Assembly (NCBI GenBank): GCA_902604835.1
Contig: CACKZW010000003.1
Span: 408-64,407, forward strand
Direction of reading: 5' to 3'
DNA: 64,000 bases
Origin: an uncultured Candidatus Actinomarina sp.
GTDB taxonomy: Bacteria > Actinomycetota > Acidimicrobiia > Actinomarinales > Actinomarinaceae
Below the pieces are notes generated by a model, which worked only from the letters and a program-made list of their open reading frames with translations, did no database searches and was not told the origin of the DNA. The number at the start of each line of letters is the position of its first letter. Position 1 is the stretch's first letter. Below are positions 57-54,252 of this stretch, in pieces. The translations under genes and the position numbers were made by a program.

Positions 57-695
57 ATGTTATCAAACTTTAACATTATTACACTTTTTCCAGAAATTTT
101 TAAAAATTGGCTTGATATTGGAATTTTATCTTCTGGATTTGAGAAAAACCTTTTTGAATTAACCACCACAAACTTGAGAGACTTTGGTATTGGAAATTAC
201 AAACAAGTTGATGACGCACCTTATGGTGGTGGACCAGGGATGGTTTTAATGATAGAACCAATGGACAATGCAATCTCGCAATCAAAGAAAGATGTAAATA
301 TTTTTTTGACTCCTGATGGTCAAGAATTGAATGAGGACTTGATTGAAGAACTTCATACATACAAATCAGCCAATATTATTTGTGGAAGGTATGAAGGTTT
401 TGATCAGAGAATACTCGAGCTTCATAGTGATTACGAAATCTCTATTGGAAAAACAGTTGTTTCAGGTGGAGAAGTGCCTGCTATGTTTCTCATGGAAGCA
501 CTTTTAAGAAAATTACCTGGAATACTTGGTAATTCAGAATCACTTAAATATGAATCATTTGTTAATGATAAATATGACCATCCTACCTATACAAGACCTG
601 AAGTATATAAAGGGTTTAAAGTGCCTGATGTGTTACTTTCCGGAGATCATAAGAAAATTGATGAATGGAAAAAGAATAATTTAAAAGACATTTAA
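57..695 (+). CDS. trmD: tRNA (guanine37-N1)-methyltransferase
   Basis: 212-aa ORF with TrmD/SPOUT motifs (ICGRYEGFDQR; SIGKTVVSGGEVPAM). It lies directly upstream of rplS, as in most bacteria. Confidence 0.9.
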   Translation: MLSNFNIITLFPEIFKNWLDIGILSSGFEKNLFELTTTNLRDFGIGNYKQVDDAPYGGGPGMVLMIEPMDNAISQSKKDVNIFLTPDGQELNEDLIEELHTYKSANIICGRYEGFDQRILELHSDYEISIGKTVVSGGEVPAMFLMEALLRKLPGILGNSESLKYESFVNDKYDHPTYTRPEVYKGFKVPDVLLSGDHKKIDEWKKNNLKDI

Positions 696-9376: not shown

Positions 9377-10477
9377 ATGAATGGTTTATTAACGATATTA
9401 ATGCTTACTTTTTTTGTTGTTATGCATGAAGCAGGTCATTATTTTGCTGCTAGATTCTCAAAAGTAGCGGTTTCTGAATTTTTTGTGGGATTTGGTCCAA
9501 AAATATTTTCTTTTAAAAAAAATGGTACTGAATACGGTCTTAAGGGGATTCCCTTTGGTGGCTATGTAAAAATACCTGGAATGGACGAATCTGAAGCAAC
9601 TAAAGATTATGCTGAGGATGAATTATTTCATACTTCCAAATGGACTACAAAGCTGTTTATTGCTTCTGCTGGAATAATTGTAAATTTTATCACCGCATGG
9701 ATAATTTTATTTTCAATATTTATTTTCAATGGAGTTACACAACCGACGCTTCAAATTGATACAATCGGTCAATCTGTAAATAATGAAAAATTATCTCCTT
9801 CTGAATTTGCCGGACTAAAACCAGGAGACACCATCACTCAATTTAATGGCTTGAATGTTGAATCATGGGAAGATTTAGTAAAAAATATTGAAATTAATCC
9901 TAATAAAGAAGTTTCTTTAAAGTACATAAGAAATGGTGGCACATATCTTACGACTACAGTTTTGGAATCAAGAAATATAAATGGTAATGATTTAGGGTAT
10001 CTTGGAGTATCTCCAGTAATAGAACAACAAAATGTTGGAATTATTAATTCGGCAATTTTTTCAACAAAACTTGAATATGAAATGACTTTGGCAGCGGTTG
10101 ATGGAATCTTTACCCTATTAAGTCCAGAAAATATAAGAACATTATTAGGTACATATTCTGGTCAAGATATTCCAGATGAATCTCGACCACTTAGTCCAAT
10201 TGGTTTGGCCCAAGCGGGAAGTCAAATTGCTGACAATGGATATGTGAACCTTTTTAGTTTGCTAGCTTTTGTAAATGTATTTTTAGCAGTGTTTAATGCT
10301 ATACCCCTAATACCACTTGATGGAGGAAGAGTTTTATTGTCTCTAATAGAGGGTATAACTGGTAAGAAGATTCCTGATAAGAATCTTTATCCTATTGCAG
10401 CTTTAGTAATTATTGTTTTTGTCTTTATTGGAATAACAGCATTTTATTTAGATATAACTCAACCAATTAACTTATGA
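9377..10477 (+). CDS. rseP: M50 site-2 zinc metalloprotease (RseP/Rip1-like) with PDZ domain
   Basis: HEAGHY zinc motif in TM1, a PDZ-like region ([13 protein letters not shown]), and a C-terminal [11 protein letters not shown] motif. Confidence 0.85.
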
Positions 10478-11694
10478 AAATAAATAGAAGAAAAACTTCA
10501 CAATTATCCGTAGGTAAAGTCGGAGTTGGTTCTGACTTTCCAATCTCTGTTCAATCCATGACAACAACAAAAACAAAAGATGTTGAGGGAACTCTTGCAC
10601 AAATTTATGAGATAGCTTCAAATGGAGCAGATATTGTAAGGGTGACATGTAATGATATTGATGCTGCAAAAGGACTTGTTGAAATTACTCAAAGAAGTCC
10701 GGTACCAATAATTGCTGACATTCATTTTCAATATAAACTTGCACTTGCAGCTATAGAAGCAGGAGTGGATGGTTTGAGGTTAAATCCTGGAAACATACGC
10801 AAAGAATCACAAATAAAAGACGTAGCTAAAGCAGCCTTAGATGCAAATATACCGATTCGAATTGGTGTAAATGGTGGCTCCCTTGATAAGGATTTGCTTG
10901 AAAAATATGGAGATTCTACACCGGAGGCGTTAGTAGAGTCAGCACTCAAGGAACTTAGGTACTTAGAAGATGTGGATTTTAATGACATAAAAATTTCTGT
11001 GAAACATTCAAATGTTCCTTTAATGATTGAGTCTTATCGTTTATTAGCTGAAAAAGTAAATTATCCATTACATCTTGGAGTTACCGAAGCAGGCCCTCTT
11101 CCAGGCGGATTAATTAAATCAACAGCAGGTATTGGAACATTATTAAATGAGGGAATCGGTGACACTATTCGTTATTCATTAACCACAGATCCAGTAGAAG
11201 AAGCAAAGAGTGGTCGGCAATTATTAGAATATTTAGGCTTACGCGAAAGAAATTCTTTAGATCTAATTGCGTGTCCGAGTTGTGGTAGGGCAGAAGTTGA
11301 CGTTATCAAAGTAGCTGAAGAAGCTCAAAATGCGCTTAACAATGAAAACATTCCTCTTCAAGTTGCAGTAATGGGATGTGTTGTGAACGGACCAGGAGAG
11401 GCTAGGTCTGCTGATTTAGGTATTGCTGCTGGAAAAAATAAGGGTCATCTTTTTATAAGAGGTGAAGTTGTAAAAGTTGTTAATGAAAAGGAAATGGTTT
11501 CATCTCTTTTGGATGAAGCTAGATTAATTGTTGAACAAGGCATTGAAGCAAGACTTGCTAAAGCTGATGAAAATGCAGCGGAACTTGCACAAAAAGATGT
11601 TGATGATTTGTTAAATTCTCAAGGCGACATAAATAATTTTCTTGAAAGAAAAAAATCAGTAGTGGAGATTACTTCAAATCAAGATAATGAATAG
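10474..11694 (+). CDS. ispG: 4-hydroxy-3-methylbut-2-en-1-yl diphosphate synthase
   Basis: GcpE motifs: [20 protein letters not shown], and [10 protein letters not shown] (Fe-S cysteines). The start overlaps the rseP stop (ATGA). Confidence 0.95.
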
Positions 11695-24306: not shown

Positions 24307-25347
24307 ATGGATGTAAGCATTAATGTTGGATACTTTGGTCCACATATATCAGATGATAAAGATTTATTTAAAAAACTCGATGACATAGGTGTCTCTTGTG
24401 TGTGGACTGCAGAGGCATATGGTTATGATGCTGTAACACCACTTGCATATTTTTCAGCCTTAACAAACAATATGAATATTGGATCTGGAATAATGCAAAT
24501 ACCTGCTCGTACTCCAGCCATGACTGCCATGACCGCTGTTACGCTTGATCAGATGTCAAAAGGAAGATTTAGGTTAGGACTTGGTGTTTCTGGGCCCCAG
24601 GTAGTTGAGGGTTGGCATGGCGTACCATATGGTAAACCACTTGCAAAAACAAGAGAATATGTAGAACTAGTAAGAAACATTATCAAAAGAGAAGGAAAAG
24701 TTGAGCACAATGGTGAATATTACGAACTACCTCTGTCCGGAGAAAATACTACTGGTCTTGGAAAGCCATTAAAGCTTATTGATCAACCTTTAAGAGATGA
24801 GATACCAATTTATCTAGCAGCAGTAGGTCTTAAAAATGTTGAAATGACTGCAGAAATTGCCGAAGGGTGGTTACCTTTTATGTACTCTCCTCTTAAAGGC
24901 GAAGAGATTTACAAAGATTCACTAACAAATGGATTTAAAAAATCGGGAGTATCAGACAAAAAAGATAAATTTGAAATTGTAACAACTGTAATTGGTCGCG
25001 TATGTGATGAAGAAGAGGTTGATGAATATTTATATCCAGCAAGAAATGTTTACACGCTTTATGTTGGAGGCATGGGCGCAAAATCCAAAAATTTCTATTA
25101 CAACCTTTTTTGTGAATACGGATATGAGGATATTGCCGATGAATTACAAAATCTCTATTTAAGTGGTAATAAAAAAGAATCAGAGAAAATGTTTCCAAAA
25201 GAATTACTAGAGGAACTTACATTAGTTGGCACAAAAAAAGATATTGAAAAAAAAGTAGAAATGTGGAAAGAAAGTAACGTAACTGAAATTTCTTTATCAC
25301 TTCCTATTGATTTTGAAACTGTTAAATTTATAAAAGAATTACTTTGA
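24307..25347 (+). CDS. LLM-class (luciferase-like) F420-dependent oxidoreductase
   Basis: The pattern VWTAEAYGYDAVTPLAYF...GSGIMQIPARTPAMTAMTA..LDQMSKGRFRLGLGVSGPQVVEGWHG is typical of actinobacterial LLM F420 enzymes. Confidence 0.8.
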   Translation: MDVSINVGYFGPHISDDKDLFKKLDDIGVSCVWTAEAYGYDAVTPLAYFSALTNNMNIGSGIMQIPARTPAMTAMTAVTLDQMSKGRFRLGLGVSGPQVVEGWHGVPYGKPLAKTREYVELVRNIIKREGKVEHNGEYYELPLSGENTTGLGKPLKLIDQPLRDEIPIYLAAVGLKNVEMTAEIAEGWLPFMYSPLKGEEIYKDSLTNGFKKSGVSDKKDKFEIVTTVIGRVCDEEEVDEYLYPARNVYTLYVGGMGAKSKNFYYNLFCEYGYEDIADELQNLYLSGNKKESEKMFPKELLEELTLVGTKKDIEKKVEMWKESNVTEISLSLPIDFETVKFIKELL

Positions 25348-26687
25348 AAATTCTTTTAACTTCTTTTTATGATTTAGGCAAACAGCCAAAAATTATTGCA
25401 GAGATTGCCGATAGATACATTAACACTGAAGTGCATTTTGATTTTGTTGATTTTTCAGTAGATAATCAAAATATAGATTTAGATACTTATGATGTGCTTG
25501 GAATTTATGCACCAATGCATACAGCAACAATCCTTTCAATTGAATATATTAAAGATAAAAAACTGCCCGATAAAGTATTTACATTTGGATTGTACGGATC
25601 TGTTCTTGAAGATTTCAATCCTTTAATAAAATATATCAAAGATATTGAAAGTGAGGAACTTTCTTCTTTTTTAAAACTTAATGAAAACCAAAAATTTTCA
25701 TTAAAAGACAATATACCTAATAGACAAATATTTCCCGATATCTCAAATTACGCACATTTAGTAGATGGTTCAAATAATCTTATTGCTGGATCAGTAGAAA
25801 CTACTTACGGTTGCAAGCATTCGTGTACTCATTGTCCTGTCCCGATCTCTTTTAATGGAAGTTTTAAAACGTATTCTTTAGAAAAAATAGTCAATGATGT
25901 TCAAAATCAGGTGAATCAAGGTGCAGAACATATATCATTTAATGATCCAGATTTTTTTAATGGCCCAATTCACGCATTGAAAATTCTTGAGGCATTAAAC
26001 CACAAATTTCCACAAATAACCTATGATTCAACAATAAAAGTAGAACATATTATAAAATATCAAAAATATTTTAAAGAACTAGCGTCTTTGAATATGGCTT
26101 TTGTGATTTCTGCATTCGAAACAACTAATGACAAAGTTTTAACAATTCTTGAAAAAAACCATACAAGCAATGATTTAAATAATTCAATAGAGATTTCAAA
26201 GGAATTTGGTATTGATATACGACCAACATGGATGCCTTTTTCACCATGGACAGAATTAGAAGATTTATCAAATATTGTAGAATTAATCGAAGGTTATCAA
26301 TTACGTGAGACTGTAGATCCAATTCAATTAACTATAAAATTGTTAATACCTAAACACTCCCTCATAATTAAAAGACCTGAAATAAAAAAATATTTAGGTG
26401 ATTATGAAAAAGAATCATTAAGTTTTCAATGGCAATATGAAAATATTCATGCTGAAAAATTACAATTTACCCTTTTTGATTTTATTTTGAATAATTCAGA
26501 ATTAGATGAGCATAAACAATATCTAGGGATGGTAAGTATTATTGAAGAATTTACACGTACAAAATTAATAACAAATACAAACTATGACTTTAAGAAAGTG
26601 CCTAAGTTATCGGAAACATGGTTTTGTTGCGCAGAACCCAGTAAAATTCAACTCGATAGAATTAAAACAAATAAGGCATTGATATGA
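25344..26687 (+). CDS. radical SAM protein with a C-terminal CCAEP motif (CUAEP/CCAEP-tail family, from memory)
   Basis: CX3CX2C cluster motif YGCKHSCTHCP. The C-terminal region is ...ETWFCCAEPSKIQL. It overlaps both neighbours by 4 nt. Confidence 0.8.
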   Translation: MKILLTSFYDLGKQPKIIAEIADRYINTEVHFDFVDFSVDNQNIDLDTYDVLGIYAPMHTATILSIEYIKDKKLPDKVFTFGLYGSVLEDFNPLIKYIKDIESEELSSFLKLNENQKFSLKDNIPNRQIFPDISNYAHLVDGSNNLIAGSVETTYGCKHSCTHCPVPISFNGSFKTYSLEKIVNDVQNQVNQGAEHISFNDPDFFNGPIHALKILEALNHKFPQITYDSTIKVEHIIKYQKYFKELASLNMAFVISAFETTNDKVLTILEKNHTSNDLNNSIEISKEFGIDIRPTWMPFSPWTELEDLSNIVELIEGYQLRETVDPIQLTIKLLIPKHSLIIKRPEIKKYLGDYEKESLSFQWQYENIHAEKLQFTLFDFILNNSELDEHKQYLGMVSIIEEFTRTKLITNTNYDFKKVPKLSETWFCCAEPSKIQLDRIKTNKALI

Positions 26688-48946: not shown

Positions 48947-49771
48947 TTAACTTTTAACAGTCTTTCCTTTAATAATACGATTTCTAATTGCCGCTGATAT
49001 TGTATCTGCAGTTAATACCAAGACAATAGTACAAATTAATACTGTACCTGCTCTTGGAAAGTCCCTGAATCTAAGCTGATTTATCAATTCTTGACCAACT
49101 CCACCAGCACCTACAACGCCAAGAACTGCTGATGCTCTTAAATTAATTTCAAAGCGATAAAGCCAATAAGATGTAATAGTTGGCATAACTTGTGGAATAA
49201 CTCCAAAAGTAAGTTCGTTAATTTTTGATCCACCTGACGCTTTAATAGACTCAAGAGGCCCTTCATCAATGCCCTCTATAACTTCTGAAGATAGCTTCCC
49301 TAAAGTTCCTATTGAATGAATACCTACAGCTAGTGTTCCTGTTAACGGACCAAGTCCTGTTATTGGCAAGAAAACAAAAGCCAAAATCAATTCTGGAAAT
49401 GCTCTTATACCGTTAAGAATTTGTTTAATTACTCTATTAACAGATCCAATTGTTATATTATTTGCTGCTAAAAACGAAATAGGAAAACTAAATATTGCTC
49501 CAATAACTGTTCCTGCCCATGCGATAAACAAAGACTCAAAAACTTTTGGAATTATTCTTTCAAATGCTTCTGAACTTAAATCTAAAGGAAACATAGCACC
49601 AACCAAAGTTCCAATTTGTGCTGGAGCATTAAGTATTCTATCAAGAGTTATTTCTAAACCTGATGCTGACCAGATTGCAGAAACAACAATCAAACTAGTT
49701 AAGGAATACTTAAATATTCTTTGGTTCAATGGTTGCTTTGGAATGTTCATAATATTTTTCTTCTTAACCAA
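48947..49771 (-). CDS. phnE: phosphonate ABC transporter permease
   Basis: PhnE-type permease pattern (EGIDEGPLESIKASGGS...; VLGVVGAGGVGQEL). Confidence 0.85.
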   Translation of the reverse strand: MVKKKNIMNIPKQPLNQRIFKYSLTSLIVVSAIWSASGLEITLDRILNAPAQIGTLVGAMFPLDLSSEAFERIIPKVFESLFIAWAGTVIGAIFSFPISFLAANNITIGSVNRVIKQILNGIRAFPELILAFVFLPITGLGPLTGTLAVGIHSIGTLGKLSSEVIEGIDEGPLESIKASGGSKINELTFGVIPQVMPTITSYWLYRFEINLRASAVLGVVGAGGVGQELINQLRFRDFPRAGTVLICTIVLVLTADTISAAIRNRIIKGKTVKS

Positions 49772-50529
49772 ACGCTAAATTGTTCTATCAATATGACCAC
49801 TACAAGAATTAGCACAATTATTGGAGAGATCCTATCAAATCTAAGGAATATCCTTTGTGTTTCAATTATTCTTCCAACACCACCCGCACCTACCAATCCA
49901 AGAATCACACTTGCTCTAATGCATAATTCAAATATGTATAAAAAATATGCTGTAAAGTTGGGTAGTACTTGTGGTAGGGCAGATGTAAAAACAGACTGAT
50001 TATGAGATGCACCTGTGGCTTTTGCGGCCTCCATAGGACCAGGATCAATGCTATCAATTGTTTCGGATAATAATTTACCCATTATTGCAAGTGAAAACAT
50101 TAATAATGCAAGAACACCAGCAAATGGTCCAATGCCTACGGCAACAGTAAAAATCATAGCCCAGAATAAATCAGGTATTGTCCTCACAAGATTTAAAAAT
50201 GACTTATAGACAAAATAAGAATACTTGTTCAGATTTGTAGCCCTTGATGCGTAAAAAGATAATGGTAAGGCGACTGCGCAACCAATAATACTTGCCAATA
50301 TTGCAATTTGAATAGTCTCCACTAATGCATCAGATGAATTCTCCCAAGCCCAGGCCCATTTAGGATTAAATAAAGGATCAGTTACAAGATATCTGTTAGA
50401 TAGGTTGTTTTTAAAATCTTGAAAATTAAAACCTATCTGAAGAAATGAAAATACTGAAAAAAATATGCCGCCAGGTATTCCTATTAAAACTAATAATGAA
50501 GGACTTGGTTTTTTTGGATAATTAATCAT
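49747..50529 (-). CDS. phnE: phosphonate ABC transporter permease (second copy)
   Basis: The same family pattern (DSIDPGPMEAAKATGAS...; ILGLVGAGGVGRII). Confidence 0.85.
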   Translation of the reverse strand: MINYPKKPSPSLLVLIGIPGGIFFSVFSFLQIGFNFQDFKNNLSNRYLVTDPLFNPKWAWAWENSSDALVETIQIAILASIIGCAVALPLSFYASRATNLNKYSYFVYKSFLNLVRTIPDLFWAMIFTVAVGIGPFAGVLALLMFSLAIMGKLLSETIDSIDPGPMEAAKATGASHNQSVFTSALPQVLPNFTAYFLYIFELCIRASVILGLVGAGGVGRIIETQRIFLRFDRISPIIVLILVVVILIEQFSVWLRRKIL

Positions 50530-51289
50530 TACCTATTAAATCTGATTGCTTGATTGATCTTCCATAAATATTTTCAAAGTCTTCATCTGAAACGTCGTCA
50601 ACTTTTCCATCATAAACAAGTTCACCATCGCGTAAGCCAATTAACCTATCACCAAATTCTTTAGCTAAATCAAGAAAATGTAAATTCACTATTGTTGTAA
50701 TTCCAAGTTCTTTATTTATTTTCTTAAGATAACTCATTACTACTCTTGATGTGATTGGATCAAGTGAGGCAACAGGTTCATCTGCAAGCATAACTTTTGG
50801 TTTTTGAGATAAAGCCCTCGCAATACCTACTCTTTGTTGCTGTCCACCAGAGAGGTTGGAAGCTCTCACATAAGCTTTTTCAAGAATCTCAACTTGATTT
50901 AATGCTTCAAATGCCATTTGTTTTTGATCTTTTGGCCATAATCCAAAAATCGACCTAATGGTCGAAACTTTACTTAATCTACCTGTTAATACATTTTTCA
51001 ACACTGTTGATCTATTCACTAGATTAAAAGTTTGAAATATCATACCTATTTCAGATCTAATTTGTTTTAGTTGCTTTTTATTTGCATTAGTTATATCTTT
51101 GTTGTCTAAAAATACAACACCATTGCTTGGTTTGACTAAATTATTTATTGTTCGAAGTAGAGTTGATTTACCTGCTCCTGATAAACCGACAATAATTAAA
51201 AAATCTCCTTCGTTTATTTCTAAATCTAGATTTTTTAGGGCTTCTACGCCACCTGGATAGGTGACACTTACATTTTCGAATTTGATCAT
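50522..51289 (-). CDS. phnC: phosphonate ABC transporter ATP-binding protein
   Basis: GLSGAGKSTLLR Walker A, LSGGQQQRVGIARAL signature, and MLADEPVASLD Walker B. The overall pattern is PhnC-like. Confidence 0.9.
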   Translation of the reverse strand: MIKFENVSVTYPGGVEALKNLDLEINEGDFLIIVGLSGAGKSTLLRTINNLVKPSNGVVFLDNKDITNANKKQLKQIRSEIGMIFQTFNLVNRSTVLKNVLTGRLSKVSTIRSIFGLWPKDQKQMAFEALNQVEILEKAYVRASNLSGGQQQRVGIARALSQKPKVMLADEPVASLDPITSRVVMSYLKKINKELGITTIVNLHFLDLAKEFGDRLIGLRDGELVYDGKVDDVSDEDFENIYGRSIKQSDLIGND

Positions 51290-51300
51290 ATAAAAATTTT

Positions 51301-51325
51301 AACCGGGCTGAAGAACAACCCGGTT
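51301..51325 (-). terminator. GC-rich intercistronic hairpin (AACCGGG/CCCGGTT, 11-nt loop) between phnD and phnC
   Basis: Read directly from the sequence. No clean T-run follows, so it is more likely an attenuator or mRNA stabiliser than a full terminator. Confidence 0.45.
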
Positions 51326-51336
51326 AAAATTAAGAT

Positions 51337-52455
51337 TTAATCGTCGTATAGACCGAATTCTTCCGCTGCTTCTCTTACAACGTCGAATTCTGAGTTAACT
51401 GCTGGTACTAAATCAGTCCAACCATAAATTTCATCCATTATGGCCAAACCTTCATCAGTAGCAATATATGCAGATAATATATCATAAATTTGTTGCTTGA
51501 TGTCTTCAGGTAGATCTGTTCTAACTGCTATCACATCATTAGGAATTTCTTCTGTAATACCAAATGCAATTACCTTTTCACCAACATCTGCATTTGTTTT
51601 TCTTAGAGTTCTTCTGGCATCATCATAAGTAACACCAAATTTTGCGTCACCGTTATATAGTCCAGAAATAACTCCATCATGTGAACCAGCAAATCTTTGA
51701 ACAATGTCACCGGTATAGTCGATACCAGCTTTTTTCAATTGTAATGATGGATATAAATACCCTGAAGTAGATCCTTCTTCAACAAAAAGAACTTCTTCAC
51801 CAAGCATTACAGATAAGTCAGCTTCACATGCAAGACCAGGGCTAGTTGTTACACCATCTCTTACTTCAGGTATAAGTCCGTCGTCTCCAAAACCCCATCC
51901 AACTTGTAATGCTTTTACATCAGGTGGTGTTGTTGCTGAACCTTCAACTAAAGTTGCAACTCCATCGATGTTTTCGAAAGCACCAATCACTGGTGTTGTT
52001 TCGCAAACGCTTGCATCTGTTGTCCAGAATGTACCATGGTATGATCCTGAACCGAATCTTACAGATTTAGCAATTGCCTCAAATCTTGTAGGGAATGCGT
52101 TCATAGCTGTAACGTAACCCAATGTTGCAAACGCACCAACGTCTGCTTGACCAGATCCCATTGCAACTAATAATCCCGAATAGTCACTTGTAACAAAACC
52201 TTCAACTTCAATACCTAATCCGTCTGATAAAACTTGCATCATAGGTTGAATGTTGTCTAAAAGTTCTGCTTGCTCTGCACTTGGTACGAAACCGAAAACA
52301 ATTTTATCAAGCACTTGAGCTGTAGTGGTAGCTGGTGCATCTAAACTTTCTGTTTCTTCAACAACTGCAGGTTCCTCTACTGTTTCTTCTTCTGCGGTAC
52401 CGCAAGCAGCAAACACAAGAGAGAGACAGAGTAGAATTAAAATTGTTTTTTTCAC
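51337..52455 (-). CDS. phnD: phosphonate/phosphite-type ABC transporter substrate-binding lipoprotein
   Basis: Lipobox LVFAAC, an acidic linker, and a PhnD-like body (FGFVPS..., DVGAFATLGY, GSTSGYLYP). GTG start 5 nt after GGAGG. Confidence 0.85.
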   Translation of the reverse strand: MKKTILILLCLSLVFAACGTAEEETVEEPAVVEETESLDAPATTTAQVLDKIVFGFVPSAEQAELLDNIQPMMQVLSDGLGIEVEGFVTSDYSGLLVAMGSGQADVGAFATLGYVTAMNAFPTRFEAIAKSVRFGSGSYHGTFWTTDASVCETTPVIGAFENIDGVATLVEGSATTPPDVKALQVGWGFGDDGLIPEVRDGVTTSPGLACEADLSVMLGEEVLFVEEGSTSGYLYPSLQLKKAGIDYTGDIVQRFAGSHDGVISGLYNGDAKFGVTYDDARRTLRKTNADVGEKVIAFGITEEIPNDVIAVRTDLPEDIKQQIYDILSAYIATDEGLAIMDEIYGWTDLVPAVNSEFDVVREAAEEFGLYDD

Positions 52456-52534: not shown

Positions 52535-52996
52535 CTATAAATCGCTCGGAACGTATCCGTATTCTCTTAAAAGAATTGTCCCATCAGTGTCAAAAATTAC
52601 CGAAATCGGTTGACCAATAATTTTAAGACTATCCCTCAATTCAGGAGTAGAAAATCCAATTTCTAGTTCACCAATTAAATTTTCTGAAACCCATGTCATT
52701 GTTGAGTCTTTATCACTATGAGCAAGAGCGATCACATTATAACTTTCACCAATAGTAGCTAAGTTAGCTTCCAAGAGAGGCAACTCCTCCCTACAGAGAC
52801 CTCAGTAATCAGCCCAAAATACAACTAAAGTTTTTTTATTTGTTAAATCAACATTTACCATCGTTCCAGTTGTATCTTCATAAACCAATACTTCCAAATT
52901 TGAATTAGTAGAATTTTGATTAGACTCATCGATTGTAGAATTTGAACCGTATGAACAAAATGAAAACAACAATATGAAAGCTAGCGATTTTCTCAT
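52535..52996 (-). CDS. secreted TlpA/ResA-like thioredoxin-fold protein with in-frame TGA (52802-52804) at the first redox Cys; candidate selenoprotein (UGLC), or else a pseudogene
   Basis: Track ORFs 52802..52996 and 52535..52783 share strand and frame. The joined reading is ..TLVVFWADY-U-GLCREELPLLEAN.., compared with the canonical FWAxWCxPCxxExP. The cis-Pro block IGQPISVIFDTDG lies in the downstream part. An N-terminal signal peptide is present. Confidence 0.6.
52774..52792 (-). promoter_or_regulatory. SECIS-like hairpin AGGGAGG-AGUUG-CCUCUCU, starting 10 nt 3' of the in-frame UGA
   Basis: A 7-bp stem (one G-U pair) paired by eye. The apical loop contains GU about 20 nt from the UGA, within the range I recall for bacterial SECIS elements. 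Confidence 0.4.
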
Positions 52997-53043
52997 ACAA
53001 CTATGTTACTAATATTGCAATTAAAGCTTGCTAGTCTAAAAAT

Positions 53044-54252
53044 ATGAAAATAGGTTTTTTATCAGTTGGAACAGAAATATTACTTGGAGATACAGTAAAT
53101 ACCAACCTAACAAACTTAGGTAGAAGGTTGTATGATGCTGGTTTTAAGTTAAATAAAGAAATCACAATTTCTGATAATGAAAAAGAAATACATGATGCAA
53201 TCATATATCTTCTTGAGAGTTGCGATGTAGTTGTTACATCTGGGGGATTAGGTCCAACTGAAGATGATATAACAAAAGAAGTGATATCAAATTCATTATC
53301 TTTAGAATTAGAACTAGACGATAGCCATGTTGAGTGGATGAAAGAAAGATGGAAGAGTCGTGGTCTTATTATGCCTGAAACCAATATCAAACAAGCTTAC
53401 ATTCCAAAAGGTAGTGAAAAATTAATTAATACACAAGGTACGGCTCCTGGTATCAGAATATCTAAAGATGATAAAGAAATATTTATTTTTCCAGGCCCAC
53501 CAAGAGAGTTCATTCCTCTCGTTGAAGATGAACTGTTGCCTTATCTTACTGAAAACTTTGAAAAAAATGATACTGACTACCAATTCGTTATGTTATTTAA
53601 TCAAGCAGAATCTTCACTTGCAGCAGAGATAGATAAATTTAAACCTGAAGGATTAGATATTGCATACCTTGCAAGTAGAGGAATTATCAAATTACGGTTT
53701 GATAGAAATTCAGTGAGTAAAAGCGATTTTGATATATTTATAGATAAAATTGATGAAATATTTTCTGATGACATTCTTGCCTATGAGAATATATCTGTTG
53801 AAAAAGCACTTGGTTCGCTATTAGCTAAAAACGATATCAAAGTCTCATTTGTTGAGAGTATTACTGGTGGTCTCTTGTCTTCATTGCTTGTCAAAAATCC
53901 AGGTATTAGTAAATATTTTATTGGTTCGGATATTGTTTATGGGAATCAAGCTAAATCCATCCTATTAAACGATAATGATATAGATTTCGAAAATTGGGAA
54001 GTACTTTGTGTTAATTTAACCCATTCTTCATTAGAAAAATATAAAACTGATATTTGTTTAACAATTTTGGGTGAGGCTGGACCATTATCTTCAAGCCAGT
54101 ATTCTGTCGGTACAATTTTTATTTGTATATCTAATGGTGACAAAACTGTGATAACAGATCATAAAATGAACGGTAATAGGGAAGAAATACTGCAAAGATC
54201 AGCAAATAAAGCTCAATGGGAGCTGATAAAATTCATTAAAAACTTGTATTAG
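53044..54252 (+). CDS. cinA: CinA (competence/damage-inducible protein; MoCF-binding N-domain plus PncC-like amidase C-domain)
   Basis: LSVGTEILLGDTVNTN, VVTSGGLGPTEDDITKE, and C-terminal ESITGGLL motifs. It lies upstream of recA. Confidence 0.88.
   Translation: MKIGFLSVGTEILLGDTVNTNLTNLGRRLYDAGFKLNKEITISDNEKEIHDAIIYLLESCDVVVTSGGLGPTEDDITKEVISNSLSLELELDDSHVEWMKERWKSRGLIMPETNIKQAYIPKGSEKLINTQGTAPGIRISKDDKEIFIFPGPPREFIPLVEDELLPYLTENFEKNDTDYQFVMLFNQAESSLAAEIDKFKPEGLDIAYLASRGIIKLRFDRNSVSKSDFDIFIDKIDEIFSDDILAYENISVEKALGSLLAKNDIKVSFVESITGGLLSSLLVKNPGISKYFIGSDIVYGNQAKSILLNDNDIDFENWEVLCVNLTHSSLEKYKTDICLTILGEAGPLSSSQYSVGTIFICISNGDKTVITDHKMNGNREEILQRSANKAQWELIKFIKNLY

Follow-up and report, generated by a model that had tools for sequence, protein, structure and literature searches.

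Predicted selenoproteins with a thioredoxin-like fold and a UxxC redox motif, in which selenocysteine (Sec) stands in place of the first cysteine of CxxC, have been listed from marine metagenomes for two decades. The Sargasso Sea sequences AACY01056680, AACY01261884, AACY01197381, AACY01088208, and AACY01095051 were entered under the name 'Thioredoxin' (Zhang, Fomenko and Gladyshev, 2005, Genome Biol 6:R37; PMC1088965, Additional file 1), and TlpA-like UxxC selenoproteins are catalogued in a 2026 review. The present analysis concerns a member of this family, encoded on a 64,000-nucleotide (nt) stretch of genomic DNA from an uncultured Candidatus Actinomarina sp. (contig CACKZW010000003.1, positions 408 to 64,407; hereafter the window), where an in-frame TGA interrupts a gene for a TlpA/ResA-like protein. 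The initial annotation of this DNA proposed an extracytoplasmic selenoprotein and noted that UxxC thioredoxin-like selenoproteins occur in marine metagenomes; the 2005 list indeed contains the same family, with AACY01056680 being 86% identical to the Actinomarina protein over 153/153 residues and carrying its TGA at the same codon 65 ('TGA position 193..195'). The gene family has been known as a predicted selenoprotein since 2005, and the proposal is a correct call and no new discovery. What is added here is the assignment to the Actinomarinales, a TGA form that is nearly fixed across this order and a sister clade, the probable nature of the product as a lipid-anchored TlpA/ResA-type oxidoreductase and not a cytoplasmic thioredoxin, and the systematic mis-translation of the gene in public protein databases.

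Judged from the DNA, the TGA is very probably a genuine Sec codon and the locus a single Sec-decoded gene; the alternation of TGA and Cys at this codon, the selection acting on it, a hairpin of the bacterial Sec insertion sequence (bSECIS) type and the predicted fold all speak in favor of the selenoprotein interpretation. The window has a GC content of 32% and is densely coding under translation table 11. On its minus strand, the frame from 52996 to 52535 contains a single TGA, at codon 65, and is otherwise uninterrupted over 153 codons. This frame is common to both open reading frames (ORFs) listed for the locus, 52802..52996 and 52535..52783; the ORF list and the translation agree with their earlier description as one frame split by TGA. 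Around codon 65, the sequence reads ...TNKKTLVVFWADY-TGA-GLCREELPLLEANL..., and the residues just before the TGA are KKTLVVFWADY. Elsewhere in the window TGA serves as a genuine stop, as had been asserted. The 61 ORFs of at least 150 amino acids end on TAA (40), TGA (13), or TAG (8), and hidden Markov model (HMM) alignments reach the end of the profile in the TGA-terminated lepB (signal peptidase I), xerC/D, rpsB (ribosomal protein S2), and truB, likewise in an F420-dependent oxidoreductase and phnE. Since TGA ends 13/61 large ORFs at complete C-termini, a global reassignment of this codon is excluded. A scan of the window for further TGA-interrupted frames gave no credible gene, all matches being antisense to real genes.

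Homologues were gathered from three sources. One genome per GTDB species was scanned, which located the gene in 15 genomes, all of them Candidatus Actinomarina/Actinomarinales (OCS155); a metagenome scan supplied 22 further loci, and exact-protein look-ups yielded 9 more, among them a sister clade whose proteins have 151-160 residues. Overall, 47 DNA copies with amino acid identities of 39-97% are available, those with LUM* accessions originating from whole metagenome assemblies and not from metagenome-assembled genomes. Codon 65 is TGA in 45 of these copies, among them those of the 15 species-level Actinomarinales genomes, with identities down to 52%, and of the sister clade. The remaining two, L002 (TGC) and L040 (TGT), encode Cys. 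L040 is the most distant copy (39% identity), has its TGT within FWADY-C-ITC and lacks the hairpin; Cys forms are also found among the distant representatives P0125 and P0127. L002 (287-745 of LUMQ01006488.1, a 1,950-bp contig from a Red Sea metagenome) is a close relative of TGA-bearing copies, has an intact hairpin, and is the sole close relative with a Cys codon instead of TGA. Its TGC is due either to a Sec-to-Cys replacement that arose recently and segregates in the population, or to an erroneous consensus on this short contig.

Premature stops downstream of the TGA are absent from all 47 copies. The ratio of nonsynonymous to synonymous substitutions (dN/dS) of the downstream part is 0.09-0.13 among Actinomarina species, at synonymous divergences (dS) of 0.6-1.3, and that of the upstream part is similar; in comparisons with more distant clades, the downstream value rises to 0.2-0.5. 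The resolving Cys is kept in at least 90% of 35 diverse homologues and in 47/47 DNA copies. An orthologous column alternating between TGA and Cys, followed by a region under purifying selection, had been named beforehand as the pattern to look for; it is found, with no sign of decay, and reads as the classical signature of a Sec/Cys pair. Since the TGA/Cys column is conserved and purifying selection acts on both sides of it, a pseudogene, an assembly error, and two independent genes are excluded. One copy has an aberrant end: L032 (3001-3414 of LUMH01000411.1) keeps the TGA and diverges at its C-terminus after ...LIIDT (ENMDTFQTTYKF...), which is consistent with a deletion or a frameshift close to the 3' end in this metagenome assembly.

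The putative bSECIS element lies within the coding region. The hairpin begins 9 nt 3' of the UGA and is composed of AGGGAGG (52792-52786), AGUUG (52785-52781), and CCUCUCU (52780-52774), the stem and loop that the initial annotation had drawn. The conserved R-E-E-L-P-L codons of the CxxCxxExP block supply its sequence, so constraints on the protein and on the RNA overlap. Across 21 distinct sequences, 99.3% of the cells in the 7-bp stem are paired, versus 45-78% in controls with the 3' arm shifted by 1-3 columns, and RNAalifold finds the stem again, extended below by up to three pairs. In the MED-G99-like clade (5/21 sequences), a G-C pair is exchanged for a compensated C-G pair at the cost of an E-to-Q and an L-to-V replacement in the protein; two stem pairs vary solely between Watson-Crick and wobble pairing; and in the sister clade GAG is changed to CGG or CAG with a matching change of CTC to GTY, yielding C-G and G-U. 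The stem codons are frozen on codons that the genome avoids, namely GAG-GAG, CCT, and CTC (20% of Glu codons are GAG and 3.7% of Leu codons are CTC), with a joint probability of this codon choice of ~2.6e-4. Third positions flanking the stem vary freely (1-1.7 bits of entropy).

The published bSECIS model describes a loop of 3-9 nt with a G in the first two loop positions, a stem of 4-16 bp, a distance of 16-37 nt from the UGA, and a minimum free energy (MFE) of -7.5 kcal/mol or lower (PMC13188914). Each of the 24 distinct TGA-bearing sequences lies within all four limits: the loop is AGUUR (5 nt; G at position 2, then U), the stem has 5-7 bp, the loop is located exactly 16 nt from the UGA, and the MFE ranges from -8.5 to -17.4 kcal/mol. 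The same limits are reached by chance in 2.7% of synonymous re-encodings of the same peptide and in 2.7% of random coding 45-mers of the window; the synonymous re-encoding null was used in place of a plain MFE z-score. The resemblance to bacterial SECIS geometry noted at the outset is thus borne out by the fit to the published model and by the compensatory changes.

For the NCBIfam search, the TGA codon was read as Cys. The best NCBIfam matches are TlpA (NF047696, 34 bits) and DsbE (TIGR00385, 30 bits), with cut-offs of 230 and 123, followed by StoA (NF041202, 30 bits) and ResA (NF002854, 26 bits), with cut-offs of 210 and 170. To judge by these scores, the protein is a member of the superfamily only and no orthologue of any characterized TlpA-like protein. 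NF041054 (ResA-like WAxxUGC motif-containing selenoprotein) is matched weakly, with 22 bits against a cut-off of 300, and the protein falls outside this family. Pfam returns borderline thioredoxin-like matches, of which PF00085 alone reaches its gathering threshold (23.7 vs 23.5), and equivalog models for TrxA score 13-20 bits against cut-offs of 97-140 (TIGR01068, 19.9 vs 96.8). Among PDB chains, a profile of the 35 homologues picks out extracytoplasmic thiol-disulfide oxidoreductases; the TGA column coincides with the first Cys of WCGPC in 2lja, where the initial annotation had placed it from the CxxC motif.

An earlier structure model based on 13 sequences (predicted local distance difference test, pLDDT, of 54) was too poor and was replaced by an AlphaFold model based on the alignment of 35 sequences, with a mean pLDDT of 79.7, a core above 90, and residues 1-26 disordered. 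In the newer model, the predicted thioredoxin fold carries both TlpA-type additions, an N-terminal beta-hairpin and a central insert. It superimposes with template modeling (TM) scores of 0.65-0.73 on DsbE, ResA, TlpA, CcmG, DsbF of M. tuberculosis, and the pneumococcal surface lipoproteins Etrx1/2; the top 47 PDB structure matches (TM 0.6-0.76) comprise DsbE, ResA, TlpA, CcmG, DsbF, Etrx, and related thiol-disulfide oxidoreductases. NCBIfam matches, PDB profile matches, and the structural model agree on the TlpA/ResA-like thioredoxin fold that had been suggested, and the Pfam search and the model confirm that neither ORF half is a complete domain. The active-site block FWADY-U-GLC-RE-E-L-P corresponds to W-C-x-x-C-x-x-E-x-P, with Tyr and not Trp preceding the nucleophile. 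The Glu at +6 from the nucleophile is the counterpart of ResA Glu80. In the 35 homologues, M1 and C14 never vary, nor do the R, E, L, and P within the active-site block or the residues G-Q-P; S15 is nearly invariant. At the N-terminus, basic residues are followed by a hydrophobic stretch, the invariant Cys14, and a disordered linker rich in Ser, Thr, and Asn, and the sister clade has a canonical I-[AS]-C lipobox. From this N-terminal signal and from homology, the protein is probably exported and anchored to lipid at Cys14, i.e. extracytoplasmic.

Decoding of UGA as Sec depends on dedicated machinery, which has been reported for the lineage. The genes selC, selA, and selD are described in 84/84 complete Actinomarina genomes, together with a divergent selB homologue just under the KofamScan threshold and about five predicted selenoproteins per genome, of which no thioredoxin-like one is named and whose families are unlisted in the supplement ('Actinomarina, resolved', bioRxiv 10.64898/2026.04.03.716425). 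With the Sargasso Sea SelD of the 2005 supplement as a query, which has the 'MRLT' start and the 341 amino acids described in the preprint, four SelD homologues were traced. They are Sec-form genes on contigs of 32-33% GC, one of which belongs to a GORG single-cell genome. Each has a GGAGG ribosome-binding site and an in-frame TGA of its own; at the loci L047 (~9929-10954) and L053 (~440-1465), the TGA stands in MRLTQYSHGSG-TGA-ACKLAP, and a post-UGA hairpin of -11 to -12 kcal/mol presents a CCU/ACCAA loop at 14-15 nt. Gene callers place the SelD start 24 codons late (317 vs 341 amino acids). The accessions of the SelD contigs are absent from the listing in the 2020 Actinomarinales paper. Overall, the Sec machinery that the preprint reports for the lineage is corroborated only in part.

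In public collections the protein is nearly always misrepresented. Stored homologues have Trp at the Sec position in 118/120 (P0001-P0120) and 118/119 (P0271-P0389) entries, and in all eight of those examined at the DNA level (8/8) the codon is TGA, i.e. the stored proteins differ from the translation of their own DNA. The Trp is introduced where gene callers, faced with short AT-rich contigs, switch to a different translation table. Elsewhere the gene is called as two pieces, which accounts for the numerous fragments ending at residue 64 or beginning near residue 72. Chimeric entries also exist, such as P0130, in which the N-terminus of CinA is fused to the C-terminus of the selenoprotein, and likewise P0122, P0124, and P0126. 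The appropriate annotation is one coding sequence (CDS) with Sec at residue 65, in place of a split gene or a spurious Trp in the catalytic site.

Several observations weigh against a Sec-decoded, lipid-anchored TlpA-type protein. The covariation in the hairpin stems from few independent events and is modest taken alone, and the MFE of the 71-nt region is no better than that of dinucleotide shuffles (z = -0.3), a comparison that is uninformative. The HMM scores are far under the equivalog cut-offs of TlpA, ResA, and DsbE, and the lipobox of the main clade has an unusual Phe at -1. No tRNA-Sec, SelA, SelB, or SelD was found in the window or the fetched loci, the tRNA-Sec search having covered the window (ARAGORN and Rfam) and 25 related loci (ARAGORN), which represent two chromosomal neighborhoods only. 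The case for Sec machinery in the lineage goes back to one preprint with selB below threshold; the SelD contigs show no link to named Actinomarina assemblies and no DNA overlap with the named loci, and the SelD hairpin differs in loop and spacing from the AGUUR at 16 nt of the TlpA-like gene. The missing machinery in the examined loci and the divergent selB, below threshold in the only report, would suit a read-through of UGA that involves no Sec, in which a near-cognate tRNA for Trp or Cys places a standard amino acid with low efficiency, or Cys is delivered by a non-canonical tRNA(UCA), with the hairpin merely slowing termination; so would the close relative L002, which has Cys yet keeps the hairpin. 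Such a read-through is improbable when set against selA, selC, and selD in every genome surveyed in the preprint, each with several predicted selenoproteins, and against a hairpin with bSECIS geometry and the loop G. Moreover, the codon specifies the catalytic nucleophile, a position at which Sec and Cys regularly stand in for one another and a Trp would inactivate the enzyme, and TGA persists over order-level divergence though one TGA-to-TGY change would give Cys.

The remaining rivals dispute either the gene or its location. Standard callers do report two ORFs here and databases hold many such fragments, as a pseudogene, a sequencing or assembly error, or two small genes (stop at the TGA and re-initiation at TTG 52783) would imply; this is nevertheless next to impossible with the TGA in 45 independent assemblies/species at dS of up to ~1.3 and dN/dS of ~0.1 on both sides, with neither half forming a complete thioredoxin fold, and with Cys in the same column of distant homologues. 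A lineage-wide reassignment of TGA to Trp or Gly, to which the Trp in nearly all database entries might seem to point, has a vanishingly small chance, as every such entry traced to its DNA has TGA, TGA ends about a fifth of the large ORFs, and no further in-frame TGA occurs in a credible gene of the window. It is also rather implausible that the gene encodes a genuine selenoprotein that is a cytoplasmic thioredoxin, its hydrophobic N-terminus being a mis-called start or an inward-facing membrane segment. The label given by Zhang et al. and the PF00085 match favor this view, whereas the TrxA equivalog scores are far too low, and the best sequence and structure matches are all extracytoplasmic (TlpA, ResA, DsbE, StoA, CcmG, Etrx). 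In addition, M1, the hydrophobic stretch, and Cys14 are kept in all clades, the disordered low-complexity linker is typical of lipoproteins, and the neighboring PhnD has the same kind of N-terminus. A Sec-decoded, exported TlpA-like protein is therefore the preferred reading, and its features are collected in the table together with those of the flanking genes.

Table. Coordinates in the window of the selenoprotein gene, its predicted elements, and the adjacent genes
Feature	Position	Strand	Basis or remark
Complete CDS of the predicted TlpA/ResA-like selenoprotein, Sec at residue 65	52535..52996	(-)	153 codons plus TAG stop
In-frame TGA, predicted selenocysteine codon U65, N-terminal nucleophile of UxxC	52802..52804	(-)	TGA in 45/47 DNA copies, Cys codons in 2
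Putative redox motif U-G-L-C (UxxC)	52793..52804	(-)	resolving Cys68 at 52793-52795
Predicted bSECIS core hairpin, 7-bp stem AGGGAGG/CCUCUCU, loop AGUUG	52774..52792	(-)	pairing, compensation, loop 16 nt from UGA
Extended lower stem UCUG/UGGA with bulged U	52770..52797	(-)	conserved in part only
Pro130 of the G-Q-P block, presumed cis-proline	52607..52609	(-)	invariance; alignment with G-[IL]-P of TlpA-like structures
N-terminal signal peptide with lipobox-like end (MRKSLAFILLFSF-C14), probable lipoprotein anchor	52955..52996	(-)	conservation, disorder
phnD-like gene, phosphonate/phosphite substrate-binding lipoprotein	51337..52455	(-)	downstream, same strand; not an obligatory partner
cinA, followed by recA	53044..54252	(+)	divergent upstream neighbor; conserved locus anchor

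The gene is flanked by cinA-recA-miaB in divergent orientation and, 3' of it on the same strand, by phnD-phnC-phnE-phnE, which are followed by a convergent ftsK. The cinA-recA side is kept in essentially all loci. In most Actinomarinales, the phnD-phnC-phnE-phnE cassette (48947-52455 (-) in the window) lies between the selenoprotein gene and ftsK; in L008, L009, and L015 it is cleanly missing, and the selenoprotein gene is retained and abuts ftsK. The phn transporter is a presence/absence cassette at a fixed site. Since it is absent from three species that keep the selenoprotein, the latter belongs to the core and its linkage to phn is incidental; an obligatory functional link to the phosphonate transporter is ruled out. 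The stretch from the selenoprotein gene to phnD shows no terminator-like site. The PhnD-like protein scores above the cut-off of the phosphate/phosphite/phosphonate substrate-binding protein subfamily (148 vs 112 bits) and weakly resembles TIGR04553, a putative selenate ABC transporter substrate-binding protein (53 bits against a cut-off of 250), which is probably a similarity at family level only. The divergent starts of cinA and the selenoprotein gene are 47 nt apart (52997-53043). A consensus scan detected no sigma-70-like promoter on the minus strand, and no Shine-Dalgarno-like sequence precedes the ATG at 52996; phnD has GGAGG. The selenoprotein mRNA may lack a leader or carry only a very short one.

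Elsewhere in the window, the ORF 25344-26687 (+) scores 367 bits (E 1e-109), under the cut-off of 500 bits, against NCBIfam NF040546, 'CUAEP/CCAEP-tail radical SAM (seleno)protein', a family that is a selenoprotein in other organisms. The tail of this ORF, ...WFCCAEPSKIQLDRIKTNKALI, carries Cys, and its TGA (26685-26687) is a genuine stop. With this homologue in the Cys form and the other TGA frames antisense, a second selenoprotein in the window was rejected.

In the mechanism proposed here, the UGA at codon 65 would be decoded as Sec via the SelB/tRNA-Sec pathway, directed by the SECIS hairpin. The product would be a 153-residue thiol-disulfide oxidoreductase of the TlpA/ResA/DsbE type with the active site U-G-[LI]-C, and it would probably be exported and tethered through a lipidated Cys14 to the outer side of the membrane. 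By analogy with its relatives, it may act as a reductant of extracytoplasmic disulfides, with Sec in place of the attacking Cys, and its targets may be of the types known for ResA, TlpA, and Etrx: apocytochromes, Cu centers, and methionine sulfoxide reductases. Its electron donor, its substrates, and the physiological advantage of Sec are matters that we infer only. A surface-exposed, lipid-anchored UxxC selenoprotein that is essentially fixed across an order of very abundant, genome-streamlined marine Actinobacteria is a tentative and somewhat doubtful picture. If it is true, these monoderm-type cells would possess a rare selenium-dependent extracytoplasmic thiol-disulfide reductase, which could serve, e.g., the repair of oxidative damage or the maturation of cytochromes or Cu centers in sunlit, oxidizing water, and could be a leading reason for the retention of the entire Sec pathway in a genome of 1.1 Mb. 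The protein would count among the small number of selenoproteins of a bacterium that ranks with the most abundant in the ocean, and its near-fixation across the order makes it a good candidate to explain why a costly Sec pathway is kept in a reduced genome. Since the prediction and the Sec trait of the lineage are already published and the mechanism is the standard SECIS/SelB one, novelty is limited. The prediction is 20 years old and the lineage trait was reported in 2026; the contribution lies in the assignment and characterization.

Compared with the described systems, the gene stands closest to the Sargasso Sea set, with which it shares the family, the motif FWADY-U-G[IL]C-REELPLLE, and the same hairpin downstream; that set also holds the MED-G99-like clade and the sister clade. 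Unlike in the present account, the 2005 sequences have no organism and a generic thioredoxin label, and their localization, synteny, and order-wide distribution are undescribed. With the TlpA-like family (cd02966: ResA of B. subtilis, TlpA of B. japonicum, DsbE/CcmG, StoA, DsbF, Etrx1/Etrx2), the Actinomarina protein has in common the predicted fold with TlpA-type additions, the W-[CU]-x-x-C-x-x-E-x-P block, the G-x-P block with the presumed cis-Pro, and, probably, an N-terminal membrane or lipid anchor. It differs from these proteins by the predicted Sec in place of the nucleophilic Cys and by Tyr in place of the usual preceding Trp (ADY-U vs ASW-C), and its identity to members of the family is only 17-25%. 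Similar to the Sargasso Sea 'isomerase-like' and the NF041054 selenoproteins, it combines a TlpA-like fold of the extracytoplasmic type with Sec at the first redox position; the former, however, have the motif DWuTWC, and the latter comprise ~354 residues with a UGC motif, as opposed to 153 residues and U-G-L-C here. The predicted SECIS, finally, resembles the E. coli fdhF-type SECIS and the bSECIS consensus in forming a stem-loop directly 3' of the UGA inside the coding region, with a small apical loop that contains a G and then a U and is placed 16 nt from the UGA, and with a bulged U that may occur lower in the stem; it deviates from them by a shorter upper stem (7 bp) and by a spacing at the lower limit of the model.

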